A stretch of 64,000 bases of DNA, taken from Clostridia bacterium (lineage in GTDB: Bacteria; Bacillota; Clostridia; Christensenellales; DTU072). A model generated the notes under the pieces. The model was given only the letters and a program-made list of their open reading frames with translations. It had not been told where the DNA came from and did not search any database. Positions 15,923-53,887 of this stretch are shown here, in pieces (positions within the stretch are counted from its first letter, which is position 1; every line of letters begins with the position of its first letter). The position numbers and the translations under genes were made by a program. Location of the stretch: positions 21,571 to 85,570 of the forward strand of contig DAONQC010000001.1 in NCBI GenBank assembly GCA_035409945.1, read 5' to 3'.

Positions 15923-16495
15923 AAATGGTGGTACAGTATTCTAGTCAGATACGGTACGAGCAAAGGCGGGGTTAAAATACCGTCAAAGAGCATATCGATG
16001 AAGTTTCTTGTGTTAGCTTAGATTGCCCAAATCTGGGTTGATGCTGGGAGTTAAGATTTTTGGGCGTTCGGCAAAGGCATGTCGAAGCCGTCCCAATTAT
16101 CGTGGAGACCTATCTCGGCGGAACAACAGTTCTTCTGAATAGGATTAAACCTGTAATGCGGTAACCAATATCTGTGTACAGTGTAGCTTGCCTTGAGTGA
16201 ATTAATGAGGAATAAGGTTTCGGGTTTCTATAAACACGCGAGTTTTTAGTAACCTTTGCTTATGAAACTTAGTTTGCAAAAGAGGATAGTTCGTATCCAT
16301 TCTGTTAAAGAAATTTTCTAGACTGTTTTAAATTAAGGATTATGGTGTGTTCTTAGTGGCGATTCGGTTATACTGTGAGCAATCCTGTATTGTTTGACTT
16401 AAAAGGAAACTGCTTGTACGGCGACGACGAGTATCAAATAGGGAAATCCTACCGAACCTGATGACGCAAGGTTTACTTAATTTAAGCCACCATTT
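15923..16495 (+). ncRNA. ole: OLE (ornate, large, extremophilic) RNA candidate
   Basis: About 570 nt with no sense ORF, G+C-enriched relative to other intergenic DNA. The terminal helix is AAATGGTGG / CCACCATTT, and several internal helices are present. The synteny xseA-xseB-ispA-[RNA]-4TM protein-nadK-argR-recN matches the published OLE locus. Boundaries are approximate. Confidence 0.8.
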
Positions 16496-16564
16496 ATTAT
16501 ATATTAATAATATCGTTTTACGTGGGGTTTTATCTTGAAAATTCAAAAAGGCAGAGAAAATAAA

Positions 16565-18666: not shown

Positions 18667-20391
18667 ATGCTTTTGTCATTGCATGTCCAAAATGTTGCGG
18701 TAATTAGCGATTTAACAATTGACTTTGGTTCCGGATTGAATGTGATCACGGGTGAAACGGGGGCTGGAAAATCAATTGTGATTGACAGCCTCAATTTTGT
18801 TTTAGGAGAAAGAGCAGATCGTTCGCTAATTAGACACGGCGAAAATATGGCGGTTGTACAAGCGAGTTTTCATTGTTCAGACAACCTTGCAGTTATGGAA
18901 TTGTTGGATGAATATGGTGTATCTTGTGATGCAGACGGTATAATAATTATTAGGCGTAGTATGACACAAACAGGCCGTTCTGACTGCAAAATTAATGGCT
19001 GGGCGGTAACAGTAGGACAGCTACGCCGTTTAGTTGTATTGTTGATTGACGTTCATTCTCAACATCAAACGCAATCGCTTTTAGATGAGCAGACACATAT
19101 TAACATTTTAGATTCTTATTCGAAAAAAATTATTGAAATTCTCGATAAATATGAAAAATCATTTTTTAAGTATAAAAACTTATTGAAAACGTTATCAGAA
19201 TATCCTGATAGGAGTAATCTTGCTAGAGAAATAGATATGTTAAGCTATCAAATTAACGATATTGAATCTGCGCGTTTAGAACAAGGCGAAGAAGAGCTGT
19301 TGGTAGTAGAAAGAAATAAATTACAAAATAACGAAAGGTTATTAGAAGCTGCTAATATTATTGTTTCTTTGATTGATGGTAGGGACGGGATGGGATTGGA
19401 TTCCGCTCTAACTCTTATGCTAAAGCAAGTCTCGTTTATGACAAAATTTGACCCATCTATATCTGATTTAACGGATAGATTAGAAAGTGTACAGATTGAA
19501 ATTAACGATCTTAAAGATGTGTTTTTAGAATATATTGAAACAAATACAGATGGGATAGAAAAACTTGAACAAATTGAACAACGAATAGATGTTATACGGA
19601 AAATTAAAAGAAAATATGGAACTGACATTGAAGAAGTGCTAAGAAAGCTGGATGAGTATAAAATACGCTTAGATTTTTTAAGCGATGCAGAATCAAATTT
19701 ATCTGAACTTAATAAATGTATAAGCAAAGTGATTTATGAGTTGTTGAGTATAGCTAAAATGCTTAGCGATGAAAGGGATAAGACGGGTCGTTTATTGTCG
19801 CGTGAAATTGTTAAGCAGCTTATAGATTTAGGCATGAAGCATGCGGAATTTAATGTAGATGTAGACTTTTTTGGCGAAGTTGTGGAAAAACTCACTCATA
19901 AAGGTGGGGATAATGTGAGATTTGCTATTAGTCTTAATCCTGGAGAACCTTTAAAACCTCTTTCTAGAGTAGCCAGCGGTGGAGAAATGAGTAGGGTTAT
20001 GTTAGCAATTAAAAACATCACTGCGGATTTAGAAAATATAGACACGCTTATTTTTGATGAAATCGATACGGGAATTTCAGGCAATGCAGCCAAAACTGTG
20101 GCTCAAAAATTACATAACATAGCGAGTAAAAGACAGGTTATAGTTGTTACCCATCTTGCACAAATAGCCGCTATGGCTGATAGTAATTTTTTAATAACTA
20201 AGAGTGTATATGAATCTGAAACGGTTTCAGAAATACATCATTTAACTGATGAAGAAACAATTTATGAATTAATGCGAATTTTAGGGAGTGAATCAAAAAG
20301 CGAAACAGGTTATGGACATGCAAAAGAACTTAAACTAAACGCCAATTTGTATAAAGAGTCGCAAAAACAGCTATTGTATAATAAAAAATAA
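18667..20391 (+). CDS. recN: DNA repair protein RecN
   Basis: Walker A GETGAGKS, a long coiled-coil middle, the ABC signature ASGGEMSRVMLA, and Walker B LIFDEIDTG. Confidence 0.95.
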   Translation: MLLSLHVQNVAVISDLTIDFGSGLNVITGETGAGKSIVIDSLNFVLGERADRSLIRHGENMAVVQASFHCSDNLAVMELLDEYGVSCDADGIIIIRRSMTQTGRSDCKINGWAVTVGQLRRLVVLLIDVHSQHQTQSLLDEQTHINILDSYSKKIIEILDKYEKSFFKYKNLLKTLSEYPDRSNLAREIDMLSYQINDIESARLEQGEEELLVVERNKLQNNERLLEAANIIVSLIDGRDGMGLDSALTLMLKQVSFMTKFDPSISDLTDRLESVQIEINDLKDVFLEYIETNTDGIEKLEQIEQRIDVIRKIKRKYGTDIEEVLRKLDEYKIRLDFLSDAESNLSELNKCISKVIYELLSIAKMLSDERDKTGRLLSREIVKQLIDLGMKHAEFNVDVDFFGEVVEKLTHKGGDNVRFAISLNPGEPLKPLSRVASGGEMSRVMLAIKNITADLENIDTLIFDEIDTGISGNAAKTVAQKLHNIASKRQVIVVTHLAQIAAMADSNFLITKSVYESETVSEIHHLTDEETIYELMRILGSESKSETGYGHAKELKLNANLYKESQKQLLYNKK

Positions 20392-34548: not shown

Positions 34549-34736
34549 AATCTCTAAATCAAAATATTAAACACAGATTTTTTAATAATTCCATCTGTAA
34601 TATATTTTATTTTTAAGCCATTTTTTTAGAATTTTGTAAAAAATATAAAAATACTTGGATTGCAAACAATTTTTAATTATTTGCGTATTTTGTCATTTTT
34701 TGACTAAAAATAACCATTATTCATCGCCCCCTATTT

Positions 34737-34774
34737 GCATCTATTCGCAAAATCGGTATTTTGCGAATAGATGC
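34737..34774. repeat. Perfect 17-bp inverted repeat with 4-bp centre (candidate dif-like / operator site)
   Basis: The sequence is GCATCTATTCGCAAAAT-cggt-ATTTTGCGAATAGATGC. CCCCT (34728-34732) / AGGGG (34775-34779) extend the stem across a 4-nt bulge. The direct repeat CCCCTATTTG occurs at 34728-34737 and 34805-34814. Confidence 0.9.
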
Positions 34775-34871
34775 AGGGGTAATATGTTTGTTATTTTCCC
34801 TTTTCCCCTATTTGAGAATAAACATTTGCATGCCTTTAAATTAAATATAAACAATAAATAATTCGCTTCTA

Positions 34872-34902
34872 TTACAATTAATATGTTTAAATATGGTATA
34901 AT
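34872..34902 (+). promoter_or_regulatory. Promoter for the recombinase-lexA operon with leaderless geometry
   Basis: TTACAA (34872-34877), a 19-nt spacer, then TGgTATAAT (34894-34902). The predicted +1 is the A of ATG 34909, and there is no SD. Confidence 0.45.
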
Positions 34903-34908
34903 AAATTT

Positions 34909-35991
34909 ATGGAAAAGACTAACTATTTTGAATTAAAAAAGTATAACCAATTATCTAAGTTAAATGATATTTTGGAAAATAATCTACCATTTTTTTGTAG
35001 GGAATTCTTCGTAGGAATTTCAATGCGTGTAGCATCATCAACTCAATTGAATTATGCTAGAGATTTAGTCATATTTTTCGATTTTCTTGTAAAAAAAATT
35101 AACCATTTCTATGGAAAATCCATAAACTCAATAACATTGGCTGATTTAGATGCTTTAGAAAGTCAACATATAGAGTTTTATTTGAGTTATCTATCCTACT
35201 ATAAATTTAATGGAAAAATCAGAACTAATAATGAAAGAGGCAAAGCAAGAAAGCTAAGCGCTATTAAATCTATGTTAAATTATTTTTATAAGAGAGATTT
35301 AATTCAAGAAAATGTCAGTTTAAAAGTTGATACTCCAAAAATTCACGATAAACCCATTATTCGTCTTGATAATGACGAAGTCGAATCAATGTTATCAGTA
35401 GTTGAAAAAGAATCTAAGTTTCATTCATCACGTCAAGATAATTATAATTCAAGAGTTATTAAACGCGATACTGCCCTATTAACACTACTTTTAGGTACTG
35501 GTATAAGAGTTAGTGAATGCGTCGGTCTAAATTTACTAGATATAGACTTTAAAAATAATGCCTTTAAAGTAACTCGAAAAGGTGGTAATATATCAGTGCT
35601 CTATTTTTCTAACGAAATTAAACAGGCACTTGATGACTATATTATATGGAGGTATGAACGATTGGCGAAAGCAAATAAACTCGATACGCCTGCTTTGTTT
35701 ATAAGCCTTCAAAACAAGCGTATTACTACACGCGCAGTTGAAAATATTGTAAAAAAATATGCGAAATTAATTTCTCCATTAAAATCTATATCTCCACATA
35801 AACTACGAAGCACATATGGTACTGCTTTATACAGAGAAACTAAAGATATCTTTATTGTAGCTGAAGTATTAGGACATAAGGATGTAAATACAACAAAAAA
35901 ACATTATGCTGCTATATCTGAAGACATAAAAAAAGATGCTGCGACGAGAGTAAAATTACGTAGACATTCTCAAATAGACACAGACAAGTGA
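34909..35991 (+). CDS. XerS-like tyrosine site-specific recombinase
   Basis: A complete R-K-H-R-H-Y catalytic set is present (GIRVSE, VTRKGG, HKLRST, LGHKD, KKHY). The N-terminal core-binding region has an XerS-like pattern (LPFFCREFF...FFDFLV), as recalled from memory. Confidence 0.8.
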   Translation: MEKTNYFELKKYNQLSKLNDILENNLPFFCREFFVGISMRVASSTQLNYARDLVIFFDFLVKKINHFYGKSINSITLADLDALESQHIEFYLSYLSYYKFNGKIRTNNERGKARKLSAIKSMLNYFYKRDLIQENVSLKVDTPKIHDKPIIRLDNDEVESMLSVVEKESKFHSSRQDNYNSRVIKRDTALLTLLLGTGIRVSECVGLNLLDIDFKNNAFKVTRKGGNISVLYFSNEIKQALDDYIIWRYERLAKANKLDTPALFISLQNKRITTRAVENIVKKYAKLISPLKSISPHKLRSTYGTALYRETKDIFIVAEVLGHKDVNTTKKHYAAISEDIKKDAATRVKLRRHSQIDTDK

Positions 35992-36071
35992 AATTATTAA
36001 TCAAGATTTAGAATCATTATTTACTTTAATTAACGATAATTATTGAGAGTATAGCCAGAAGAGGACTTTAA

Positions 36072-36695
36072 ATGAAAAATGATATTATAACCAACAAATT
36101 AAATAAATTGAGGTTTTTTTTAAAGGAGTATTTTATTAAAAACACCTATCCACCCACTATTAGAGAAATTTGTAACTATATGGGTTTCAAATCTACGTCC
36201 AGTGCACATAAATATCTTAGATTGTTAAGAGATTTAGGAGAGATATCGATTGATTCCAATATAAGTAGAGGTATTAAGCTAGAAAAGAACATTTTTGAAT
36301 TGCCAGGAATTAATTTAGTCCCCCTACTTAGTAGTATTGTTTCGGGTCAACAGCTCTTCGCGGAGGAGTCATATACCAAGCATATTCCCCTTCCTCAATC
36401 ATTTTTTGGTTACAATGATAATTTATTGTTGATTAAAGTTTCAGGTTCAAGCATGATAGATGTAGGCATTAATGATGGGGATTATATTGTAATTCATAAA
36501 CAACCATTTGCTTCTAGCGGTGATATAATAGCTGCTTTAATTGACAACGAATATATAACAGTTAAAAGATATTATATAGACCATAATAACGTGGTTAGAT
36601 TGCACCCTGAAAATAAAAACATGAGTGATGTTTATCCTGAAAACATTCAAGTTTTGGGTATAGTAAAAGGACTTATTCGTACAGAGGTAAAATAA
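36072..36695 (+). CDS. lexA: LexA repressor (S24 peptidase)
   Basis: wHTH with YPPTIREI, catalytic Ser in GSSMID and Lys in TVKRYY. The cleavage-site position reads VS-GQ rather than the usual A-G. Confidence 0.88.
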   Translation: MKNDIITNKLNKLRFFLKEYFIKNTYPPTIREICNYMGFKSTSSAHKYLRLLRDLGEISIDSNISRGIKLEKNIFELPGINLVPLLSSIVSGQQLFAEESYTKHIPLPQSFFGYNDNLLLIKVSGSSMIDVGINDGDYIVIHKQPFASSGDIIAALIDNEYITVKRYYIDHNNVVRLHPENKNMSDVYPENIQVLGIVKGLIRTEVK

Positions 36696-38077
36696 TGAAT
36701 AAAATTAACACAATTAATACTGACTTATTTAGGAGTAGAGTGGACACGATTGTGTTGAATACCCTATCGGAAAAAGATAGGTATGGTTATGAAATTCTAG
36801 AAATAATCGCACAAAATTCAGTTAGTCACTATGAAATTAAGCAATCAACATTATATAGTATTTTAAAACGACTAGAAAACTTAGAGTATATATCGTCATA
36901 TGATGGACTCGAAACTAATGGCGCGCAACGTAAATACTATACTCTAACAGACAAAGGTAGAAGTTTTTTAGAAACACAGAAATATGAATGGGAGTATACA
37001 AGGACTCTATTAGACAAATTGGTTAGTAATAAGCCTGTTGACTTAATTGATTCTTTATCCACATTCCCTTATAATCCAAATGATTTAAAGCCAAAGACGC
37101 CTAGAAAATCAAAATTACAAGGTCAACAGGAGTATGATGATAATATAAATATGCAACAAGATGCAAAAGATATGAATAATAATATTGATTTATCTACTGA
37201 AACAACAAGTTTTAACATAAATCAAACGCTAGAATCAGACATGAGTTTTAAAAATCAAAGGGAAAACAATCAATCACCATCTATGGAAGAACAATTAGAA
37301 AGAGAACGGGCCGAAAAGCTTTTAGGATTAGGAGTATACTTACCACTAGAATCAACTGATGTGTCCAATAAGAATGCTGACGACATAAACGTACAACCTA
37401 CGCTTTCGACCATAGGAGTCGCAGAAAATAGTATAATAAATGCTACGCCAAGTTTAAACTATAGAGAAGCCCTAGGCTTATTATATACCGATGACAACAG
37501 TCTTTTTCATGATGGAGAGATTACTAATGAAGCAAACGAAGAGGCGCTGTATATCAAGGCTGAAAACTCTCGTTTCCCGCACTATAACGATATGAAAAAA
37601 AGGCTATTTGATGAAGGGTACACCGTAAAGACATACAACAAGGCAAACTCTAGTAATTTTTATTATATGAACTATTATTATTCTAACAAACTATTTAGAG
37701 ATTTAACACTTATTGTTTATATATTTTATGCTACCCTACTTACGATATTAAGCTTTTTGCCCGAAGCATTACAATTGTCAAGACCTTCTTTTTTATCCGC
37801 ACTAGGTATTGGGTTAATAGTTCCAACAGTTAGATTATTAATATATTTACAAAACCCACTCAAGAGAATAAGAGCAAAATTTAACGCATTAAAAATAATA
37901 TTATATTTTACCCTATGGATGACTTTTTCAGTATTAATAATTTTTCTTATCAATTTAATAAATGATACAATTTGTGATAGTTTATATTTAGTATTTATTC
38001 TATACTCAAGCATACCATTTGCAATGCTAATATACTATTTGATGTTTAGATCAAATAAATATCATTTAAAGAAATAG
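36695..38077 (+). CDS. PadR-family wHTH protein fused to a low-complexity linker and a 4-TM C-terminal membrane domain
   Basis: PadR signature (LSEKDRYGYEILE...STLYSILKRLE...RKYYTLTDKG). An Asn/Gln/Asp-rich linker follows, then four hydrophobic helices at aa ~335-455. The start overlaps the lexA stop (TAATG). Confidence 0.75.
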   Translation: MNKINTINTDLFRSRVDTIVLNTLSEKDRYGYEILEIIAQNSVSHYEIKQSTLYSILKRLENLEYISSYDGLETNGAQRKYYTLTDKGRSFLETQKYEWEYTRTLLDKLVSNKPVDLIDSLSTFPYNPNDLKPKTPRKSKLQGQQEYDDNINMQQDAKDMNNNIDLSTETTSFNINQTLESDMSFKNQRENNQSPSMEEQLERERAEKLLGLGVYLPLESTDVSNKNADDINVQPTLSTIGVAENSIINATPSLNYREALGLLYTDDNSLFHDGEITNEANEEALYIKAENSRFPHYNDMKKRLFDEGYTVKTYNKANSSNFYYMNYYYSNKLFRDLTLIVYIFYATLLTILSFLPEALQLSRPSFLSALGIGLIVPTVRLLIYLQNPLKRIRAKFNALKIILYFTLWMTFSVLIIFLINLINDTICDSLYLVFILYSSIPFAMLIYYLMFRSNKYHLKK

Positions 38078-38085
38078 AAATATTG

Positions 38086-38535
38086 CTATCTGTTATTTGA
38101 TTTAGTCAAAGATTCTCTTCGAGCCATTTCATCACATTTATTGTTATATTGGTTATCAGAATGCCCTTTTACTTTATTAAATGTAACGATATGAGGCTGT
38201 ATTGCATAAACAAGCCTTTCCCATAGATCTTTATTTTTGACTGGTTGGCGAGTTTTTGTTTTCCAATCATTATTTTTCCAGTTAGTAATCCACCCTTCTT
38301 GAAATGCATTTACTAAATATGCACTATCTGAGTATAAATTTACAAAACACGGTTCTTTTAAAGCCTCAATACCTTTTATTGCAGCAAGTAATTCCATTCT
38401 ATTATTTGTTGTTTCCGGCACGTTACCATATAAGATTTTTTCATGTTGTTGATAAATTAAGATTGCACACCATCCACCGTTTCCAGGGTTACCGCTACAG
38501 GCTCCATCAGTATAAATATCTACTCTTTTATTCAT
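38086..38535 (-). CDS. rnhA: Ribonuclease HI
   Basis: The motifs IYTDGACSGNPG.GGW, NNRMEL.A and KGHS....N..CD are present. Confidence 0.92.
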   Translation of the reverse strand: MNKRVDIYTDGACSGNPGNGGWCAILIYQQHEKILYGNVPETTNNRMELLAAIKGIEALKEPCFVNLYSDSAYLVNAFQEGWITNWKNNDWKTKTRQPVKNKDLWERLVYAIQPHIVTFNKVKGHSDNQYNNKCDEMARRESLTKSNNR

Positions 38536-39347
38536 TGTTTAACCTCTGAGAGTTGTTTTGATCGTGCAGCACAGGCTTTAACGCCATTCAGTATAATCTC
38601 ATCCAAGTTTTCAGTTCGGAACACATTAATAGCTTCTACAGTTGTTCCACCTTTGCTGGAAACTTTTGTAATTAATTCTTCTAATGAATCTTTAGAATTA
38701 ATAGCGAACAGAGTACTTCCTAGAAAAGTATTAAATACAAGTTTACTACTGATTTCCTGCGTGAGCCCAACATCAACGCCTGCATCAATTAATGACTTTA
38801 AAAAGTAGAATACATATGCTGGTCCACTACCGCTAATGCTTGTAAGGGCATCAAATTGATGTTCAGGAATTTCAATGGTTTCACCACATACATTAAAGAT
38901 ACTATTAATAAGGTTCATTTCTTGACGATTACACGTATTAGGATAGGTAATACCTATAGTACCATTTCCATCTAGGCAGGGCAAGTTGGGCATTGCTCTG
39001 ATAATAGGTCCATTAAAATTCGTAACTTCTCTAATTTTTGCAATACTTACTCCAGCCATAATTGATACAATATATTGCGATAATATGCTTTTATTACTAA
39101 ATGAAAGCTGGGAAAATGTTTGTGGTTTGATGGCAAAAAAAGTAATATTTGCTTTATTTAATACATCATCAATATTCGTTGTTGTATTAAAACCCAAACT
39201 TTCATAATATGATAATTTATTTAAATCGGTATCGCATATGATGATATTATTGCTATCTAGATTAACTAAATGCTTATTCTGAAAAACATTATTAATTATT
39301 GCACCACCCATATTGCCTGCACCAACGAACCCTATTTCAAATCTCAT
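38532..39347 (-). CDS. proC: Pyrroline-5-carboxylate reductase
   Basis: The true start is MRFEIGFVGAGNMGGAI (Rossmann GxGxxG), with AAAGGAG upstream. The track ORF extension to 39494 reads antisense through tRNA-Trp. Confidence 0.88.
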   Translation of the reverse strand: MRFEIGFVGAGNMGGAIINNVFQNKHLVNLDSNNIIICDTDLNKLSYYESLGFNTTTNIDDVLNKANITFFAIKPQTFSQLSFSNKSILSQYIVSIMAGVSIAKIREVTNFNGPIIRAMPNLPCLDGNGTIGITYPNTCNRQEMNLINSIFNVCGETIEIPEHQFDALTSISGSGPAYVFYFLKSLIDAGVDVGLTQEISSKLVFNTFLGSTLFAINSKDSLEELITKVSSKGGTTVEAINVFRTENLDEIILNGVKACAARSKQLSEVKQ

Positions 39348-39364
39348 AAGACGCTCCTTTTTCA

Positions 39365-39394
39365 TTGACATAATATCTTTTAAATATATATAAT
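39365..39394 (+). promoter_or_regulatory. Promoter for tRNA-Trp
   Basis: TTGACA (39365-39370), an 18-nt spacer, then TATAAT (39389-39394). Confidence 0.6.
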
Positions 39395-39407
39395 AAACAT
39401 TAGTTAA

Positions 39408-39483
39408 AGGGGAGTGGCTCAATTGGTAGAGCATCGGTCTCCAAAACCGACGGTTGCGTGTTCGAGTCGCGTCTCCCCTGCCA
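39408..39483 (+). tRNA. trnW: tRNA-Trp (anticodon CCA), CCA end encoded
   Basis: Cloverleaf: acceptor AGGGGAG/CTCCCCT, D-arm GCTC..GAGC, anticodon stem TCGGT/ACCGA with loop CTCCAAA, and T-arm GCGTG-TTCGAGT-CGCGT, ending in GCCA. Confidence 0.93.
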
Positions 39484-39486
39484 ACC

Positions 39487-39522
39487 ATGTCCATTATGTA
39501 ACTACATAATGGACATTTTTAT
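39487..39522 (+). terminator. Rho-independent terminator after tRNA-Trp
   Basis: A 14-bp stem, ATGTCCATTATGTA / TACATAATGGACAT, followed by TTTTTATT. Confidence 0.8.
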
Positions 39523-45430: not shown

Positions 45431-48400
45431 TTATTTCCTTTTAGAACGGTTGTTTGTGAAAGCTTTGAGCATTGATTTTTTGCTTAAAATAGATATAATC
45501 GTTATTAATATAATTAACCCTGCAATTGAAGCTAAAATTATATACATCACATTATTAGAGGAAGTAATCGGTTTCTCATAAACGATTTCATATTCTTCTG
45601 TTATATATTCGTATTCATAATTTGAGTCAAGCCCCCCACTAGGTTGTGCAATGTTAGTTCCAACTAGTGTACTAGATAAATTGAGTGAAGGAAGCCCTTC
45701 TAAATCTTCTTCAGAATCACCTGGTAAAAAGCCTTCATATTGAAGTGTATAGCCTGGTTTTTGTCCTGCAGGAGTAGCCTTATCGATAACAGGAATGACT
45801 TTTAAAACAGCTTTTTTTACTCTAAACGATATAGAACTTGTTCCTGCAATGTAATAACTATCATTTGACACCCCTACATTAACAAAATATTGCGCAGCAT
45901 CAATGATTTGGTTTTGCGTAAACGGTTGATTGTCTTTGCGTATTTGTAAAACAGGCTTACAAATATCGTTAGGTGCCACACCTATTATAGAAATGCCAAG
46001 TTCAGGGCCCCCTATTTCAGGATAATTCTTTATTTTATCTCTTCCATTGTATACAAATTCATCTATTAAGTTACCTTCTATGTCTTTTGGTCTTAGGTCA
46101 AAAACTACACGAACTTGTTTCTGCGAAATTTTTATTTCTTTAGTAATTTCTGTCGAAATATAATTACTAAAAGGATTTAATTCTGTTTGAGCTGGAGCAT
46201 TATATTTTGCAGTTACGGTGTGGTATCCGGCTTTCGGATATAGTGGTAATGTACCATCTTCGTTTGCAAACGAATAAGTAACATTTACCGTTTCGTTAAG
46301 CCCTTCTGCGGTCACTCTTGCAGTAAATTTTTGGAAAATATTGCCATATTCTTGATAAGAATTCCCCGATAATTCTATGTAAGGTTTTACCTTTTTAATT
46401 TCTAATTCTGTGGTAGGTCCTCGTAAAGTATATCCAGAATCATTTGTTATTTCTGAAGACACAATATATATGCCCGCATTTTTAGGCGGTATGCTATCTC
46501 TAGTGTAAAATACTCCTTCCTTACCTTCGTAATATATTTTTATGTTAACTGTAGTATTATATCCGTCTAAAGTACTATCTGTACTACCTGGCACGATTAC
46601 CCCGTCATTAATCTTCAATGTCGCTCCAGGTAGATAGTATTCTATGATAGGCTCAACAATAACTTGACTGTTATTAAAATGCGTCGCATCTGGTTTATTA
46701 AGTTTAATTTTTGCTAATGATAATATGCGAGCTTCTATTTCAAAGCTATCATTAGAAAGTGTATAGTTGTGACTTTGTGAACCGCCAGAGATATAAACAT
46801 TATTAACTAGAACTTTTGTGTTTGGGACATCTGGAAGGGATTCATTTAATTTAGAAGTATATGAAATTTCGACTAACTCTTTATCTTTTTCAAGTAATCC
46901 TAACAATTTAAAGTGTTCATTGGTGATATTAGCTTTAGTATCATTATTTGCTGGTTTCTTAAAAACAAGACCACTTTGAACTACTTCAATAGTTCTGGGA
47001 ATGATTGTGAAGTCAGAAGAAAACCTGGTGGGATCATTAAACACTGAATCATTTTCATTTGCTTTACATATAACATTATAATTTTTTAAATTGGCACCAG
47101 ACTTTAGGGCTAGTTTAACTACATAATTGCCAACATCTTTAATGTTATCGCCACATACAACAGTTTCATTTATATCTTGATATACTACTTCGAAAGTAAG
47201 GTTAAGTAGTGAAGGCGTGTCAGTTCCTACAAATGAATATGTAGTGTCATTATACTTGCCATAGTTGATATAAAACTGCACATCTTCATTCCCTTCATAT
47301 AGTATAGATTCACTATCATTATATTTTGAAAAAACAGACGGGCTGTCGCCGTAACGTATTTCCGCTTTATCACCAGTTAGTTTACGAGAAATAGTAATTG
47401 GTATTGTGACTTTATCAATTCGTCCACGCTCACTCATAGTAATCGGTTCTGGGAGTTGAAAATTATTAGCAGAATCAGCATTTACACTAAATGAAATTTT
47501 TATTTTTTTATTCTCACCTGCATCAGAATCTGTTTCTCCTAAGGTTGTAGAAATAAATGTTCCAGAGATAGTGAAGCCTCTATTAAATAATTCTGGACTG
47601 TTAGCATATAAATAATCTCTCTTCTGAGGGGTTAGTGAAATTTTTCTTTGGTCTAATCTATTGTTACCATCATAAATCTTATTAAACCTCTCGTTACCAT
47701 CGTGTATATTATTATAAACTATGTCTTCAGCACTAACCTCCACCACACATTTTGTAATCATTAAAATGGCTGAATCTTTTATTGTTTCAAAAACATCTTC
47801 TTCATTGTACTCATACAGTTGCAACCGGTAGTTTTTAGCCTCTTCTGTGATAAAGGAATATGAAATTTGGTATCCTTCTTGAATGTAGTTTTCGCCCAAT
47901 TGTCTTGTGCATCTTATTAATTCTGGCCAGTTAAAGTTACTAGGGTTTGACAGATAGTCGCTTTTTATAGCAGTTGGAAGATCGTCAATTCTTACATTGA
48001 AATTGCTCGGGTTATAAAAGTCCGGATCGTTTTTTCCGTAGACTTTGGTGAAATCTTTAATTTGTAGAGCAACTGGTCTGCCTAAAATTACATATTTGCC
48101 TTTCCCACCGGATTTGTTTATTCCACTAATTACGAATGAAATATTTGGATTATCATCATATATTACATCATCTATGTCATATGACCCGGCATCTGGATAA
48201 TCTCCGCCAGTTCTTGAGTAAGTAAGTTCAACGGGTATGGTGCTTAGGGGCATAATAACATTGACTGTCTCTTTAGGAACAAGTGGAAGAATGGGAATGG
48301 AATCATTCCATTCATCCCATTGAATTGAAAACTGTTTTGGTGTAATGCTGTAAACTCTTTCAGTTATTTCAAATTTGAACACATTTCCATTATTATCCAT

Positions 48401-51400
48401 TGCACTTGTGTTAACAGAAACAGCATAGTTTAAGCTACCATCATATGTATAACCTGTATAATAGTAGGAACCCACGTCTTCTCCTACATCACGGATTAGC
48501 GTCGCACTAATTATAACCAGTTCGCCGTCACCAGGTTCATCATGAATTCCAGTTTGATCAATCATAATTGTTTTGTTTACAGTGAGACTATCTATATTAT
48601 CCAACTCACCGTATGTTTTTATTATATTTGTGGGTATCAAAGTTATTGAATATGGTGTGACATTAAAGGTTTTTTCATCAAATACTGTTTCACTAGTATA
48701 TATATAATAGTTGGAATTATCAGTTAAAGCTGCCTTTACAGTATACTGTCCACAATCTTTGTAACTGGTTTTGCTCCCCGGTTCATAATATGTTATATCT
48801 GTGTTTTCTATATCTCTGCTCTTGTCAACAAAAGAATATACATAGGCTCCCAGATTAATGTTGTCACCTTCAACTATGCCAGAATAATAATTGTCACCTT
48901 CGCTAACATATCCCACCCCGCTGCTTAATTCTACTTGTATATCATTGCTATTTCCATTAAATACAATATTATTATCCAAACCAAAGGTAACTTGAATGGG
49001 TCGAGGTTTAATTTTGAAATGTCTTTCTAAAACGCTACCTTCAGCAAGTAATACATAGTTTTTTTCTGTGTTAGCAAGACTTATCATAATTTTGTAACTG
49101 TCAGAAACAGCGTAAGCAGCATCAATTCGTTGCTGTCCATTATGAACAACTTTATCAATTCTAGGTTCATCTCCAGAAATGAAAGAATATCCTGGCTGGT
49201 ACGCATATCCGATCGAATTTGCGAAATTTTGATTAGAACCACCATAAATAAATTCCATATTCTCTTCTAGTGGTTGACTGTTGTATACCAAATATGCTTT
49301 CAGAGGTTTTGGCGTAATTTCAAATTGTACGTTATTAGGGATGGTACTCTCCACTTTATAGTTATTGTTGTGCGAATGAGCAGTCACAGTATACACTCCA
49401 GTTTGCGATACGGCAGTTGTGGTTACTCCAGAAATGTTTGTATATTGTAGCCTTATTATGCTATCTAGCGTATCTGTTCCAAGTGGTCCATACCCTGCTG
49501 TTGCAGAATATTGGATGTGTTGGATTGTCTTGTTGTACACTCTAGTATTTGTTGAATCAAATTCAATTATTAAATCCTTTGGTTTTACGGAGTAATTTAA
49601 TATATTGCAATTTTGTGCGTTAGTGTTAGATAAATTACTGCTTGTAATTATATAATTAAGATGATTTGTTAAACCACTGTCTCCTGTAAGAGTTACGGTT
49701 GTTTGATAACTACCGGCATTTAATATTTGTCCTACAGAAACCCTACTAGTTGGGGGACCATACATATGATCTTGTTTCAACGAAACCAATCCAGCATCTG
49801 CTTCCGCAAGAGGTTTCGTAGGGTCAAATTGTACTCCAATAGAAAGAGGTTCGTTATTAAAAACTAAGTTAGAATATGCAGAGAATTGTATCCCTAATTC
49901 TCTCTTTAAAATAGTAAATAATCTTGTTCTGTTTGTTTCAGGAGGCATACTATAATTTACTTCGTTAAAGTTTATAATTACCTTATAATTCCCTGCAGTT
50001 TTTGGTTCAGGAACTAACGCTAATGTTGAAGCATCGTAAAAAACATAGCTGATATTTGGTGTTTGGTCGTTTGGGATTACACCAGTTAACGTGGCACTAA
50101 TTTCAGATTTTTTTGAGGTTGCATCATATATTAATGTCTGTGGAATAGAAATGTTAACACCTAATGGTTTTTTTGCGATTGTGAAACTAGTAGTAATTGA
50201 ATCTTTGAAGTTTCCTTTACCAGTAATCTCAATACTAGCGTTACCAGCATCCTTATGATTAGAATAAACGAGAGTAAAATCTGTATCTTTATAGAGTAAG
50301 TTTTCTTTATATTTGATGGTTGGTTTCGGCGTTATATTGGCAAAACAATAGCTTTGTGATTCTATAGGAGCAACTGTTAGAAGTGGTTCGTTTTTGATAC
50401 TACAAGCCGTTATTGTTATACTACGGGTTATGTCTGCAGGCCTAATTTTATATGAAGGATTAGATAAGCTGCAAGTTAATGTATATGTGCCTACATTTAT
50501 TACAGTATCAGAGCCCCAGCTTTTATTTACAGCCACTGAATCGCCTAGAATTATGTCAGAGACTTTTACCTGTACTTCAACATTATCGCTCTTGCTCGTA
50601 GAATCATAAACAAATGACAAAGTTCCAAAATCAAGAGAGACTTCTTTAGGTGTGACCTCTATTTCTTGATAATTATCACTAGCATTAATCACATAATTTA
50701 GAGTTAAGAACCTTAAATTACCTTCTGTGCCATTCTTTACATATGCTGATGCATTGTACTTTCCAACTGTCTTAATTTCGGTTATAGGAGTACCATTTAT
50801 GTTCTTATATGATAAACCTAAATAGCTAGGAGATAATTCTGTATTTACTGTTGAAACGTTAACCTTTAAACCAAGGTCAGAACCAATATAGTTAGTGCCA
50901 TTATACACAAGAGGTTGAACAGAAGAACCGGTTCCCGTCTTAAAAGTCACGTTAACAACCCAAGGATTTATTTTAATGTCATTAACATTAGTTTGTGAAG
51001 CGTTGGTAATATAGTAGTTATTTCTACCAGAGCCCTCTGTTTTTAATGCAGTTGCAGAGTAGGTTCCAGCATTTCTCAATTCATCAACAACATTGTTGCT
51101 TGCATTTTTATATACAGTACTTATAGTTACCGTGTCTCTTTCATATATTGCCGAATTTGCGTCTTCAATCGTACACACAAACGGGTGTGGGTTTTTATTG
51201 AATGTAAATGTTTTATTTTCAGGCCAAATAACTTTTATGCCTTTAGGCGTGATTTCAAAAGGAATACTGTAGCTATTAATAACGTTCTGGTCTGTAGGTA
51301 GCCTATAATTAGCTACATCTGCTCCAGAAAGAATCCCAACTCTAGCATGATAAGTGCCAGCATCAAAACATTCGTATGGTTCAGTTGATGAACTGTTCCG

Positions 51401-53887
51401 AAATGTTAATGACGAAATGTGAACCTCATCGCTTCCGATAGCATTATTTACATGCAAACTTGGTAATATGCGCTGCCCATTGTACACGAAAATATAGTCA
51501 CTATCTAGACTTTGCACATCTCCATCACTAGTGTGCCACTCTAGTGTCACTGTTCTTTTTGTGATACTACAGTTGTACAGTATAATATCAATAGAGCCAC
51601 CTCCAACTGGGGGATTAATTTTGTAGTTAATGTTGTTAACACTACAATTCACTAATTTAACATTAACAGAACCACTGCCCGTTACATTTGAAACAGGGAC
51701 GCCACTAGAGTTTACAAAACTGCTTAGAGTATCATCAAATGTTATATATGTATTGCTTTCATCTCCTGGGAGGAGTCCATTAAGAAGATAATGTTCATTT
51801 AAACGCAATCCTATTACACTTGAAGAACCATCATATTCTTTAGAGTACGACATTTGCGCCCCTTCTGTTTGCACCGTAATAACTCTCTGTTCAATTTGTA
51901 CAGTTAAAGGGGATGCTGGAGCTGTATACGTGTAGACTTCACTAGGATTATTACTGGAATTCCCTGCTATTACTTCGCCATCTTGTAATGGAACCTCTTG
52001 ATTTTGATCTGTTGTTCTATACAGTAAAACGGTATAAGTACCTACTCTTGAGTGGGTAGTAACATTTCTGCTCCCTGATATTCCTACTGTATCATAGGCT
52101 GAATTAGCAACATTATCTAAATCTTTATATTGGCTTACCCATTTAATCCCTGGAAATAATGACGAAGTACCTGAAGGAGCTCCAGAAAATAAAACACCTG
52201 TCCTATCATATGTTTTTTTGTCGTCTACTACATCTGCAAACGAAGTTACCATGGGTGACGAGTTAATTGTGAAGAAGTAAACTATATGGTTTTTAGAATT
52301 CTTAGGGAAATTAAAACTCACTGAATTTAATTCAGATAGCGAATAGTCGTCATACACAGTAATGTAGTATTTATGGTCGTACCTATCGTCATATGTACCA
52401 GCAGATACGTAATACATATTGGTCTGTGTTACATTAGCTACTAGGATTATTTCACCTTGCGGGTTGATTGTTGTATAATCTAAAGTTCCGTATGCAGCAC
52501 CACTGGAATCTTTATATTTGGCAGCTGTTTCAGGATTTAACTCATTAATATTATTTGTAGATGTATGACTTCCAAAGCCCCAACCTAGGTAAAACAATCC
52601 ACCATCTTTACCAGCTTCCTGTTTGCCATTTTCTCCGATAGCAGTTTTAGTGGTGGAACTGCCACCAGTAAAGTCATATGAAGTAAGTATTTGTAATTTA
52701 CCTCTATTATTAGAAACCTCACCGTCTGCTTTGACTTTAAACACATTAGAAATAATTAAATTGGAACCTGCAGAACCTCCCCAAGTGCCAGCTTTATTAA
52801 CAGTTCCTATAGGAGCAGTTGCAGATTTATTTGCTGATTTATACAGTAGTCCATCGACAGAGAAATTAGCAGCGCGATTCGAACCAAAAACATTTCCTGC
52901 ATAACCGGTGGTAAGGTCAACATTGTTTGAGGGTTTTAGGTTAGATGCAATAACCCCATTCCCTTTTAAAGTGAAATTGACTAGAGTTGGGCTGGCGTTT
53001 GATACTGTATGAAGCTCACCGACGACCCCTCCTGCAATAGAACGGCAGGGATTATTATCAGCGGTTATCTCTATTTTTGAAGCAATTTGACTATTACCAC
53101 CCCAAGGTATCTTTTTGCCGTTGACATTTTTGTTTTCCGCACGAGACGATATTAGGCCGTTGTTGTTTAGAGTTGAATGATAAATCTTACCTGCCCCTTG
53201 TGCGGTCCCTACGAAACCTCCTGCAATTCCTCCTGCTCCTCCTAAATAATTAATGTCAGATTCCGATCCGCGCCCATCAATCCCTAACGCAGAAAAAGCA
53301 GCATTTTCACTAATATTTAGTTGGACTTTTTCTATCTTTCCAGTTGTATCTAAAAGTCCAGCGATTATTCCTGCACTGATAAAAAAGGAATTTTCCTCTA
53401 CAACTTCTTTACGGCTATAGCCTGTCAAAATATTGTTTGTTAATGTAAAGTGTAGATTGGCATTATAATTTATAGTTACGTCTTTGAATGTTCCACTAAG
53501 TTTACCTGTAAAAAGCCCTGCATATACGTTGGCAGCATCTGTATGGTTATGTTTCTTGTATCCGTTTATAGTAATTGTATGCCCATTTCCATTAAACGTT
53601 CCACTATAAACGTTATTTTTACCATGTTGATCTGTTGTCCCTAAATTAATAGTTATATCTTGAGTTAGTTCAACACTCTCTGAAGTTGTGCTATTCAAAA
53701 TACTTAGAAGTGCATCGCCTGAACTGACTGCAGTCGCTTCAGCATTATTATTCTGTGTAACCGTAAGACAAGTAATTGTCTGTGTTGATAAAAATGTTAT
53801 CAAAAATAAACTCACTAAAAAAAGAATTAGCAAGCTAATTTTGGATAATTTGTAAAATACAGTTGGTAGAAAAGTATCGTGTTTCAA
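45431..53887 (-). CDS. Giant (2818 aa) tail-anchored cell-surface repeat protein with a GLUG-like N-terminal region and many MBG-like modules
   Basis: TTG start with GAGG 6 nt upstream, and an N-terminal signal/TM helix. The first ~450 aa has Gly-rich motifs (AGLFTG, GGIAGGFVG, SIAGGVVG, GYAGNVFG). Next come dozens of ~80-90 aa modules (ITPK..., Y[DN]G..., [AV]G[TK]Y..., NY...). The C-terminus has a TM helix plus the basic tail NNRSKRK, with no LPXTG. Confidence 0.85.
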   Translation of the reverse strand: MKHDTFLPTVFYKLSKISLLILFLVSLFLITFLSTQTITCLTVTQNNNAEATAVSSGDALLSILNSTTSESVELTQDITINLGTTDQHGKNNVYSGTFNGNGHTITINGYKKHNHTDAANVYAGLFTGKLSGTFKDVTINYNANLHFTLTNNILTGYSRKEVVEENSFFISAGIIAGLLDTTGKIEKVQLNISENAAFSALGIDGRGSESDINYLGGAGGIAGGFVGTAQGAGKIYHSTLNNNGLISSRAENKNVNGKKIPWGGNSQIASKIEITADNNPCRSIAGGVVGELHTVSNASPTLVNFTLKGNGVIASNLKPSNNVDLTTGYAGNVFGSNRAANFSVDGLLYKSANKSATAPIGTVNKAGTWGGSAGSNLIISNVFKVKADGEVSNNRGKLQILTSYDFTGGSSTTKTAIGENGKQEAGKDGGLFYLGWGFGSHTSTNNINELNPETAAKYKDSSGAAYGTLDYTTINPQGEIILVANVTQTNMYYVSAGTYDDRYDHKYYITVYDDYSLSELNSVSFNFPKNSKNHIVYFFTINSSPMVTSFADVVDDKKTYDRTGVLFSGAPSGTSSLFPGIKWVSQYKDLDNVANSAYDTVGISGSRNVTTHSRVGTYTVLLYRTTDQNQEVPLQDGEVIAGNSSNNPSEVYTYTAPASPLTVQIEQRVITVQTEGAQMSYSKEYDGSSSVIGLRLNEHYLLNGLLPGDESNTYITFDDTLSSFVNSSGVPVSNVTGSGSVNVKLVNCSVNNINYKINPPVGGGSIDIILYNCSITKRTVTLEWHTSDGDVQSLDSDYIFVYNGQRILPSLHVNNAIGSDEVHISSLTFRNSSSTEPYECFDAGTYHARVGILSGADVANYRLPTDQNVINSYSIPFEITPKGIKVIWPENKTFTFNKNPHPFVCTIEDANSAIYERDTVTISTVYKNASNNVVDELRNAGTYSATALKTEGSGRNNYYITNASQTNVNDIKINPWVVNVTFKTGTGSSVQPLVYNGTNYIGSDLGLKVNVSTVNTELSPSYLGLSYKNINGTPITEIKTVGKYNASAYVKNGTEGNLRFLTLNYVINASDNYQEIEVTPKEVSLDFGTLSFVYDSTSKSDNVEVQVKVSDIILGDSVAVNKSWGSDTVINVGTYTLTCSLSNPSYKIRPADITRSITITACSIKNEPLLTVAPIESQSYCFANITPKPTIKYKENLLYKDTDFTLVYSNHKDAGNASIEITGKGNFKDSITTSFTIAKKPLGVNISIPQTLIYDATSKKSEISATLTGVIPNDQTPNISYVFYDASTLALVPEPKTAGNYKVIINFNEVNYSMPPETNRTRLFTILKRELGIQFSAYSNLVFNNEPLSIGVQFDPTKPLAEADAGLVSLKQDHMYGPPTSRVSVGQILNAGSYQTTVTLTGDSGLTNHLNYIITSSNLSNTNAQNCNILNYSVKPKDLIIEFDSTNTRVYNKTIQHIQYSATAGYGPLGTDTLDSIIRLQYTNISGVTTTAVSQTGVYTVTAHSHNNNYKVESTIPNNVQFEITPKPLKAYLVYNSQPLEENMEFIYGGSNQNFANSIGYAYQPGYSFISGDEPRIDKVVHNGQQRIDAAYAVSDSYKIMISLANTEKNYVLLAEGSVLERHFKIKPRPIQVTFGLDNNIVFNGNSNDIQVELSSGVGYVSEGDNYYSGIVEGDNINLGAYVYSFVDKSRDIENTDITYYEPGSKTSYKDCGQYTVKAALTDNSNYYIYTSETVFDEKTFNVTPYSITLIPTNIIKTYGELDNIDSLTVNKTIMIDQTGIHDEPGDGELVIISATLIRDVGEDVGSYYYTGYTYDGSLNYAVSVNTSAMDNNGNVFKFEITERVYSITPKQFSIQWDEWNDSIPILPLVPKETVNVIMPLSTIPVELTYSRTGGDYPDAGSYDIDDVIYDDNPNISFVISGINKSGGKGKYVILGRPVALQIKDFTKVYGKNDPDFYNPSNFNVRIDDLPTAIKSDYLSNPSNFNWPELIRCTRQLGENYIQEGYQISYSFITEEAKNYRLQLYEYNEEDVFETIKDSAILMITKCVVEVSAEDIVYNNIHDGNERFNKIYDGNNRLDQRKISLTPQKRDYLYANSPELFNRGFTISGTFISTTLGETDSDAGENKKIKISFSVNADSANNFQLPEPITMSERGRIDKVTIPITISRKLTGDKAEIRYGDSPSVFSKYNDSESILYEGNEDVQFYINYGKYNDTTYSFVGTDTPSLLNLTFEVVYQDINETVVCGDNIKDVGNYVVKLALKSGANLKNYNVICKANENDSVFNDPTRFSSDFTIIPRTIEVVQSGLVFKKPANNDTKANITNEHFKLLGLLEKDKELVEISYTSKLNESLPDVPNTKVLVNNVYISGGSQSHNYTLSNDSFEIEARILSLAKIKLNKPDATHFNNSQVIVEPIIEYYLPGATLKINDGVIVPGSTDSTLDGYNTTVNIKIYYEGKEGVFYTRDSIPPKNAGIYIVSSEITNDSGYTLRGPTTELEIKKVKPYIELSGNSYQEYGNIFQKFTARVTAEGLNETVNVTYSFANEDGTLPLYPKAGYHTVTAKYNAPAQTELNPFSNYISTEITKEIKISQKQVRVVFDLRPKDIEGNLIDEFVYNGRDKIKNYPEIGGPELGISIIGVAPNDICKPVLQIRKDNQPFTQNQIIDAAQYFVNVGVSNDSYYIAGTSSISFRVKKAVLKVIPVIDKATPAGQKPGYTLQYEGFLPGDSEEDLEGLPSLNLSSTLVGTNIAQPSGGLDSNYEYEYITEEYEIVYEKPITSSNNVMYIILASIAGLIILITIISILSKKSMLKAFTNNRSKRK

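Follow-up and report, generated by a model that had tools for sequence, protein, structure and literature searches.

In the single-recombinase XerS and XerH systems, physical linkage between the recombination site and the recombinase gene is a hallmark (PMC3325230; PMC5357621). XerS of streptococci and lactococci is one recombinase of ~356–360 aa, and its site, difSL, lies directly beside the recombinase gene near the terminus and has arms that end in A/T runs at the centre (PMC5357621). XerH of Helicobacter and Campylobacter is likewise a single recombinase (354–362 aa), with difH close to xerH (PMC3325230; PMC5357621). How the timing and placement of such systems are controlled is only partly understood. 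The current study deals with a locus of this kind in a 64,000-nt stretch of Clostridia bacterium DNA (contig DAONQC010000001.1). The whole stretch is called the window here; positions are window positions, and L-numbers (L004 etc.) denote related loci that were compared. In this locus a palindrome is followed by genes for an Xer recombinase, for LexA, and for a PadR-like protein with transmembrane (TM) helices, named PadR-TM. Judged from its sequence, the palindrome is very probably a dif-type site and the locus a terminus dif-Xer module for dimer resolution, of the single-recombinase XerS/XerH-like kind, in a low-GC bacterium that resembles Christensenellales. The best explanation overall is that lexA and the membrane PadR gene are attached to this module as one transcription unit, for which we consider the chances to be about even.

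The original prediction, made from the letters of this DNA, placed the three genes on one strand, and their open reading frames (ORFs) were confirmed as follows.

34909–35991, plus strand: xer, encoding a XerS/XerH-like tyrosine recombinase of 360 aa
35992–36071, plus strand: xer-lexA spacer of 80 bp, with the Shine-Dalgarno sequence AGAAGAGGA
36072–36695, plus strand: lexA, encoding 207 aa with LexA_DNA_bind and Peptidase_S24 domains
36695–38077, plus strand: PadR-TM gene, encoding 460 aa with a PadR winged helix, a linker and four TM helices

An overlap of lexA with the third gene (TAATG) had also been described, and the stop codon of the one and the ATG of the other do have one base in common. 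The public gene call for the third gene (P0001, 441 aa) begins at an internal GTG (V20). In alignments of 16, and then 58, homologues the PadR-TM N-terminus was conserved from the ATG onward, with N8, R13, V16 and D17 invariant (T9 too among 17 aligned sequences), and the overlap is therefore real. The 80-bp spacer had been said to lack a promoter or SOS box; searches of it agreed, with no match to GAAC-N4-GTTC or its relaxed variant and none that was promoter-like or terminator-like. The arrangement was not known to the author of the prediction as functionally described, and a literature search turned up no such description. The literature on membrane-anchored PadR proteins, LexA-PadR and Xer/dif in Clostridia yielded nothing relevant, and it contained no account of a dif/Xer system in Christensenellales or in the gut Clostridia related to them. 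The joining of lexA and a dedicated membrane-anchored PadR family to Xer/dif is undescribed in the literature found.

The palindrome has perfect 18-nt arms and a 4-nt gap (34736–34775), slightly longer than the 34737–34774 first reported. It had been put forward as a candidate LexA/SOS box, a proposal that gave way to that of a dif-type recombinase core site.

34739–34772, no strand assigned: dif-like core site, with left arm ATCTATTCGCAAAA (34739–34752), centre TCGGTA (34753–34758) and right arm TTTTGCGAATAGAT (34759–34772)

This 34-bp core (14-6-14) sits 136 bp upstream of xer and was found once in the 64-kb window, the part of this genome covered. Since the arms are perfectly symmetric, one recombinase species on both arms is implied. 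The window motif GCAAAA-N6-TTTTGC resembles TGAAAA-N6-TTTTCA of difH, both having AAAA, a 6-bp centre and TTTT (PMC3325230; PMC5357621). The A/T runs at the centre and the place beside the recombinase gene near the terminus are shared with difSL, but difSL is asymmetric (31 bp, with an 11-bp centre), its arm sequence is different, and the window site is a perfect 14-6-14 palindrome.

In relatives with 31–48% GC (L004, L007, L009–L014, L024, L086–L088, L130 and L159), conserved arms around a variable 6-bp centre were found at distances of 130 bp to 2.8 kb 5′ of xer. An exact-pattern scan of metagenome contigs, made with the DNA motif alone, gave at least 119 loci with one copy each, and the commonest neighbour of the motif was Xer (49/140 loci, at a median distance of 130 bp). 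Among 120 distinct metagenomic sites, conservation ended exactly 14 bp from the centre, and the centre took more than 40 different non-palindromic hexamers. At one variant site (L015), the outer parts of both arms were altered in concert.

The genes to the left of the unit (mutS, mutL, miaA and a ynbB-like gene of the Met_gamma_lyase family) are all on the plus strand, and those to the right (rnhA, proC, ispH-S1 and cmk) are all on the minus strand.

38078–38085, no strand assigned: gene-orientation flip, with nearly all genes on the plus strand to its left and on the minus strand to its right, except one tRNA gene

The GC skew went from ~+0.14 to ~−0.12 across 34–40 kb, with the sign change at 36–38 kb, and the cumulative skew was maximal at 36–38 kb, coinciding with the flip. 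The skew peak and strand flip are the replication-terminus signature of a low-GC Firmicute; the GC content of the window is 33%. It is the 14-6-14 layout, this skew and strand switch, the conservation 5′ of xer, and the flanking inovirus-like elements described below that led us to the dif-Xer reading of the locus.

An RNA hairpin or terminator, or an operator for LexA or PadR-TM, would be another way to account for the palindrome. The transcribed fold is very stable (−33.5 kcal/mol, z = −7.6), the palindrome lies between the ynbB-like gene upstream and xer downstream, and single-arm copies are present in promoters. However, no U-tract follows the hairpin and no Rfam family matched it; the sequence, and not just the pairing, is conserved across genomes of 31–48% GC with the centre left free; the motif is unlike the Cheo boxes evidently used by the LexA of relatives; and it occurs in inovirus contigs and brackets an integrated element. 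Such an origin of the palindrome is considered very unlikely. A Spo0A box, tried together with operator and terminator, was rejected, as geometry and distribution alike point to a recombinase site.

Two hallmark genes of inoviruses, one for a rolling-circle Rep and one for a Zot/pI-type morphogenesis ATPase, are present on small IMG/VR contigs with the motif, and inovirus-like elements abut the site beside xer in L221, L228 and L229/L087/L014. In the last three loci one arm was replaced, yielding a hybrid site next to the Rep gene; no second dif-like junction of the Rep-bearing element of L229 was found within 7 kb. In L212 a Rep-Zot element of ~5.4 kb has a dif-like site on one side (496) and a full one on the other (5954), and its outer flank is the host flank that adjoins the site in L221 and in L215, where both arms are intact. 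The following were noted as candidate integrative mobile elements exploiting Xer (IMEX), with Rep and Zot/pI at a dif-like site.

L212, 496–5987: candidate IMEX element
L221, 2390–6656: candidate IMEX element
L228, 3570–4705: candidate IMEX element
L229, 6206–7318: candidate IMEX element

Known IMEX such as CTXphi, VGJphi and TLCphi integrate at dif by means of the host Xer, and here too Rep/Zot elements were found at the site beside xer. The elements are therefore regarded as candidate IMEX of gut Clostridia, integrated at the dif-like site. They differ from the CTXphi type in that the hosts are Clostridia with a single-recombinase-type Xer and in that their integration is deduced from sequence alone. 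In one gut lineage (L215 at ~5540–5680, L212 at ~480 and ~5940) the dif site was seen inside a longer inverted repeat (GGTATATATAG… on both sides) that exceeds the 14-bp arms.

Pairs of an integrase with an S24 repressor are common in mobile elements, and the presence of inovirus-like elements at the same locus in relatives might suggest that the unit itself belongs to a prophage or an integrative element that carries an integrase and a LexA-like S24 repressor. This is extremely unlikely: the window LexA scores above the curated equivalog cutoff, the flanks are housekeeping genes, the unit is vertically conserved in the same place, and it gave no PADLOC matches and contains no phage genes.

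The recombinase matched Pfam Phage_integrase (E 3e-30), and its best NCBIfam match was XerS (NF003462) with 175.3 bits, short of the equivalog cutoff of 267; the XerA, XerC and XerD models scored nearly as high. It is therefore XerS-like and not a XerS equivalog, and the label "XerS-like" in the original prediction was a fair one. The catalytic set is complete (R200, K224, H297, R300, H323 and Y333), and with the full R-K-H-R-H/W-Y set and 360 aa (against a size of ~355–360 aa) the protein looks like a single recombinase. Similarity to XerH, which comes from another phylum, was weak (PDB 5jjv, E 2e-8), weaker than to XerD or XerA. By these sequence comparisons, recombinase and site are of the single-recombinase Xer/dif kind, nearest to difH in layout and to XerS in family score, and a member of neither. 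Unlike XerS/difSL, the window module has lexA and the PadR-TM gene attached, and the accessible text of the XerH/difH reports mentions no lexA or membrane-PadR neighbour (PMC3325230; PMC5357621).

A promoter element lies immediately before xer.

34894–34902, plus strand: extended −10 element of xer, TGgTATAAT, read from the sequence, ending 6 nt 5′ of the ATG

There is no Shine-Dalgarno sequence in front of xer, and the same geometry (TGnTAnAAT-N6-ATG) was present in at least 11 relatives (including L004, L009–L014, L087, L088 and L130). Because of this recurrence, the short distance from the −10 element to the ATG and the missing Shine-Dalgarno sequence, the xer mRNA is likely to be leaderless, and conserved as such.

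DNA identical to the window is present on JGI metagenome contigs, and the closest named relative was a Christensenellales metagenome-assembled genome with a PadR-TM ~62% and a Xer 83% identical. The Xer proteins from all loci were grouped into 40 lineages at 75% identity, and neighbours were counted within 4 kb. Under these terms lexA was near xer in 21 of the 40 lineages and PadR-TM in 17, and the same-strand order Xer>LexA>PadR-TM was present in six. A survey of gene neighbourhoods had been proposed along with the prediction; it shows that the trio recurs and that its pairs are spread much wider. Loci with the complete order are the window, L004, L008–L014, L086–L088, L130, L159 and L174. 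PadR-TM follows Xer without lexA in L006, L007, L017 and L230 (a spore-former with different left flanks), and in the first three of these, where it is some distance from xer, the spacer upstream of PadR-TM has a sigma-70-like promoter and no SOS box. The order is swapped to PadR-TM>Xer in L020 (gap of 13 bp) and L234 (2 bp), and in L024, L110, L140 and others the two genes are divergent around dif, often with a gene for a YgjP-like metallopeptidase between them. In L235, Xer is followed by a 69-aa ORF and then by a family member with a divergent N-terminus (a TM protein). Xer>LexA without PadR-TM was seen in at least 10 lineages, and in L232, which has no xer in the vicinity, PadR-TM comes after a degenerate LexA-like gene. 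No full dif-like site was found in the rearranged loci L020, L230 and L232, although the xer promoter of L230 does contain a half-site that resembles a dif arm.

Insertions of up to several kb pile up upstream of xer near dif, and none was found inside the trio, whose genes are vertically conserved in the same place with 40–85% identity across the order. This triangular linkage, a pattern of gene order, favours a functional module. To judge from these neighbourhoods, the genomic tie of PadR-TM to xer/dif is stronger than that to lexA.

It is somewhat doubtful that functional coupling is lacking altogether, and that the genes are neighbours only through a slowly rearranging terminus block (mutS-mutL-miaA-ynbB-…-lexA-…-rnhA-proC) of the Firmicutes ancestor; this estimate overlaps with those for the other alternatives. 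In Bacillus subtilis the genes mutS, mutL, miaA, ynbB and lexA share this order, and dif is a few tens of kb away; the flanking housekeeping genes are syntenic in most relatives of the window. Inertia of this kind is a serious rival, but it does not readily account for pairs that persist with gaps of 2–13 bp or overlaps after inversions and order swaps (L020 and L234; L024 and L110), for pairs that persist despite changed flanks (L230, L232 and L235), or for insertions of up to 3 kb that lie upstream of xer and not inside the trio. The functional coupling of recombinase and lexA that had been predicted was thus supported in part: the adjacency is conserved, but some of it may be inherited synteny of the terminus.

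A gene for a YgjP-like metallopeptidase (PF01863, related to WLM/SprT) divergently adjoins the PadR-TM gene in ~7 lineages.

L140, 2798–3484, minus strand: YgjP-like gene
L015, 5214–5804, minus strand: YgjP-like gene
L110, L122, L155, L169, L179 and L199: YgjP-like gene

No homologue of it was found in the window. The YgjP-like protein may be a protease partner of the tethered regulator.

The LexA protein of the window scored 150.1 bits against TIGR00498 (cutoff 110.95), has both Pfam domains, and has an intact Ser/Lys dyad (the serine of GSSM and the lysine of VKR). Its cleavage site (residues ~88–96) is VPLLSSIVS|GQQ, i.e. Ser-Gly, whereas Ala-Gly was found in 14/15 relatives examined, including L004 with 64% identity, the exception being the degenerate protein of L232. 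Cleavage of the window LexA may thus be slow or different, as far as the residues indicate. The LexA-like protein of L232 (5279–5953) has GCRM in place of GSSM and no Ala-Gly at the usual place, and from this sequence is probably non-cleavable.

The window was searched for GAAC-N4-GTTC, RAAC-N4-GTTY and CGAA-N6-TTCG; none was present at the unit, and window-wide counts were at chance. Two GAAT-N4-ATTT sequences, one upstream of xer and one in the spacer, were dropped as SOS candidates, being weak and not conserved in L004 or L130. The sole possibly intergenic Cheo-like sequences were AAACATAAGTTT at 1036–1047, between ORFs ending at 1028 and starting at 1075, and GAACAACAGTTC at 16121–16132, ~400 bp upstream of an ORF at 16535. 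The recN gene of the window (18667–20391) lies directly behind the preceding ORF.

In distant relatives (L008–L014, L086–L088, L159 and L174) the xer-lexA spacer is 180–250 bp long and has two conserved promoters, the first of which is overlapped by a Cheo-type box (CGAAC-N4-GTTTG or GCAAAC-TTTT-GTTTGC). A Cheo-like box was found within 300 bp upstream of lexA in 19/34 relatives, GCAAAC variants not counted, and upstream of xer in only 4/71. PadR-TM lies 12–25 bp behind lexA in the relatives with an SOS box, and in those with a Cheo box lexA and PadR-TM are plausibly an SOS-controlled pair, with xer separate, if the boxes function as their sequence suggests. In the window the spacer measures 80 bp, against 24 bp in L004 (a 62%-identity relative) and ~80 bp in L130, and the upstream regions of these three have only the dif site and the xer promoter in common. 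Because there is no promoter or terminator between the genes, lexA and padR overlap, and the spacer in L004 is only 24 bp, the window trio is likely to form one operon driven from the xer promoter. Any SOS control of the window operon is hypothetical.

The architecture first proposed for the third protein, a PadR winged helix-turn-helix and four C-terminal TM helices, was upheld; only the description of its linker as Asn/Gln/Asp-rich had to be changed, the abundant residues of the linker being N (12.7%), S, E and D, with Q at only 4.5%. The PadR domain (PF03551) is at residues 20–93, with 67 bits against a cutoff of 27. Residues 7–124 align to LmrR-type (subfamily 2) PadR structures of 105–125 aa (E down to 6e-23), and the module gave a Foldseek template-modelling score of ~0.8 and an AlphaFold2 confidence (pLDDT) of ~90 over residues 10–110. 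It thus has the LmrR-like winged helix with a single C-terminal dimerisation helix, but the protein is not a small soluble cytoplasmic PadR: it is 460 aa long, four TM helices are predicted, and its C-terminal tail is conserved. Hydropathy and AlphaFold agreed on TM helices at 330–353, 363–386, 398–423 and 426–452. The positive-inside rule predicts a cytoplasmic position for the two termini and for the NPxKRI(K/R)A loop, with only 2–9 residues facing outward, and the tail (Y/F)RSNxYHLKK is almost invariant. The linker is not disordered throughout, conserved islands being present at 116–137 (with the motif D-L…P-[FY]-x-P-x-[ED]-L-[RK]-P-x-T-x-R), 197–210 (a short helix), ~256 (N-Y-R-E-A-L) and 290–336 (the juxtamembrane segment). 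From sequence and model we infer a dimeric LmrR-type DNA binder, held at the cytoplasmic face of the membrane by a four-helix anchor and a flexible linker.

A HMMER scan with the last 210 residues against 1.84 billion representative proteins showed a small and coherent family of 152 clusters (50% identity), ranging from 440 to 1000 aa. The PadR module is at the N-terminus of virtually all full-length members, and a few have a divergent N-terminus. A profile search of genome contigs gave mostly generic PadR domains, and ~14 loci were true family members. A PF22194 match in some homologues was dismissed, as it merely overlaps the PadR winged helix, and a match of the C-terminal half to RTP was not significant (E 0.14). 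PADLOC gave no match at E <= 1e-3 for any of the three proteins.

In Firmicutes, lexA adjoins genes for membrane division inhibitors, and we know of no SOS division inhibitor in Clostridia. PadR-TM could accordingly be this clade's SOS-induced effector, with a function like that of YneA, SosA or ChiZ. Division after DNA damage would then be delayed either by the membrane domain or, much as in nucleoid occlusion, by keeping DNA at the membrane. A membrane protein gene beside lexA and, in relatives, an SOS-box promoter are indeed shared with lexA-yneA of Bacillus, lexA-sosA of Staphylococcus and lexA-chiZ of Mycobacterium: PadR-TM is directly behind lexA (from a 1-nt overlap to 25 bp) in at least six Xer lineages, and lexA of relatives is preceded by Cheo-type boxes that overlap its promoter. 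However, YneA, SosA and ChiZ are small, single-pass, mostly extracellular and encoded divergently from lexA. PadR-TM, in contrast, is a large protein (440–1000 aa in the family, 460 aa in the window) with a cytoplasmic DNA-binding domain, four TM helices and almost nothing extracellular, and is encoded co-directionally with lexA. Moreover, it is unlinked to lexA in L006, L007, L017, L020, L230 and L234, has a sigma-70-like promoter without an SOS box in the first three of these, and in the window belongs to a probable operon without a LexA box. We therefore consider an effector of this type unlikely. The parallel with YneA and SosA drawn in the original prediction did not hold in size, topology or domains, and its suggestion of an SOS-linked effector fits the relatives in which a Cheo box precedes lexA and PadR-TM follows it, but not the window lineage.

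An architectural counterpart is FtsK, which has an N-terminal four-TM septal anchor, a long linker, a motor, and a gamma winged helix that activates Xer. PadR-TM has an anchor, a low-complexity linker and a winged helix, but in reversed order, with no motor domain and no detectable homology, so that the resemblance is one of architecture alone. As the gene stays by xer/lexA through rearrangements and the protein has scant extracellular surface and this FtsK-like architecture, it is tentatively suggested that PadR-TM is a tether or accessory factor linked to Xer/dif or to the terminus. A more specific version, which we regard as doubtful, is a membrane-anchored and possibly septal factor that binds the terminus/dif or Xer and tethers dif or licenses recombination, its supply being set by LexA in most lineages. 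Such a protein would in effect correspond to the anchor and gamma domain of FtsK without the motor, a comparison that is equally doubtful. As a variant of the tether, PadR-TM would be anchored in the membrane and bind the terminus or arrest forks. A precedent for Xer activators other than FtsK is reported in phage proteins such as XafT (bioRxiv 10.1101/2021.09.09.459576).

In the mechanism proposed for the locus, a single Xer would bind both arms of the 34-bp site at the skew and orientation switch and resolve chromosome dimers. The xer gene would be read from its extended −10 promoter, with lexA and PadR-TM carried on the same transcript in the window lineage. PadR-TM would be a dimeric, membrane-held winged-helix DNA binder, with its four-helix anchor and long flexible linker, that connects the membrane with DNA of the terminus/dif region or with the Xer reaction; most relatives would make it along with LexA from an SOS promoter. 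Dimer resolution or segregation could thereby be linked to the DNA-damage status of the cell.

Several observations weigh against this explanation. Some 50% of the metagenomic loci with the motif lack an xer gene within 3 kb (the contexts being trx/uvrB/nifS/nifU), and the linkage of site and gene is therefore clade-specific. At least 13 Xer lineages have LexA nearby and no PadR-TM. The mutL-miaA-ynbB…rnhA-proC neighbourhood is syntenic as a whole in relatives, so the adjacency of xer, lexA and PadR-TM may partly be inertia. Neither the xer-lexA spacer of the window nor the region 5′ of xer contains a recognisable LexA box. The membrane half of PadR-TM gave no Pfam family, PDB fold or PADLOC match and so has no informative homologue, and the DNA target of the protein is putative. 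The operator of a dimeric winged-helix protein could likewise be a palindrome with a free centre, and at divergent loci the palindrome is in an operator-like position between xer and padR-TM. Finally, the xer promoter of many relatives contains one dif arm (TTTTGCGAATAGAT), placed between −35 and −10, as the following sequence matches show.

L009, 4053–4066: single arm in xer promoter
L010, 4015–4028: single arm in xer promoter
L012, 4048–4061: single arm in xer promoter
L014, 4042–4055: single arm in xer promoter
L017, 629–642: single arm in xer promoter
L087, 5039–5052: single arm in xer promoter
L088, 5046–5059: single arm in xer promoter
L230, ~4770: single arm in xer promoter

L011 is also among these loci (series L009–L012), and no single arm was found in the xer promoter of the window. 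Further single arms were seen ~100–120 bp from the full site in L009–L012 and L088.

The promoter arm is the best argument for a transcription factor, and as a sequence feature it may be compatible either with autoregulation by an Xer monomer or with such a factor. PadR-TM would then be a membrane-tethered repressor that regulates its own gene and controls xer/lexA or a small regulon, with a membrane domain that senses or sequesters as in BcrR. BcrR is a membrane one-component regulator with an N-terminal helix-turn-helix and four C-terminal TM helices. It has the same order of DNA-binding domain and four-TM bundle as PadR-TM, but its helix-turn-helix is of the XRE type, PadR-TM has a linker of 200 to more than 600 residues, and there is no homology between them. 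PadR proteins are typically local repressors, the N-terminal module of PadR-TM is a complete LmrR-type PadR, and the gene adjoins xer in both orientations, including the classic divergent layout of regulator and target. On the other hand, a comparison of the xer-lexA spacers from nine relatives revealed no conserved palindrome that might be an operator, beyond the dif arms, the Cheo box and the two promoters; the promoter motif is a dif arm, whose 14-bp length and occurrence in phage/IMEX suit a recombinase better; and extracellular loops of ~2–9 residues offer no obvious sensor surface. On balance a local repressor is possible but not probable, and it would amount to a modest improvement in annotation.

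As a dif-Xer module, the locus provides a clear dif candidate and a recombinase for an abundant, little-studied gut order, and sequence evidence pointing to the exploitation of a dif-like site by filamentous phages in Clostridia. It also brings to light a family of DNA-binding proteins, small in number and uncharacterised, that are anchored in the membrane and whose gene keeps to xer and lexA. Should PadR-TM connect the membrane with the terminus or with Xer in an SOS-controlled way, this would be a new coupling of DNA damage, dimer resolution and division, and the protein might then also be the missing SOS effector of Clostridia.

Some minor features were noted in the flanks of the unit. A tRNA-Trp gene (39408–39483, plus strand) lies inside the minus-strand block and is overlapped by the mechanically derived 320-aa proC ORF (38532–39494); the public call for proC is 279 aa. 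In L003 (2568–3797), from a single metagenome sample, two separate calls of 170 and 202 aa take the place of the ynbB-like Met_gamma_lyase gene upstream of the unit, which is a frameshift or an assembly error. Further to the right in the window, a 2818-aa ORF with a TTG start occupies 45431–53887 on the minus strand.

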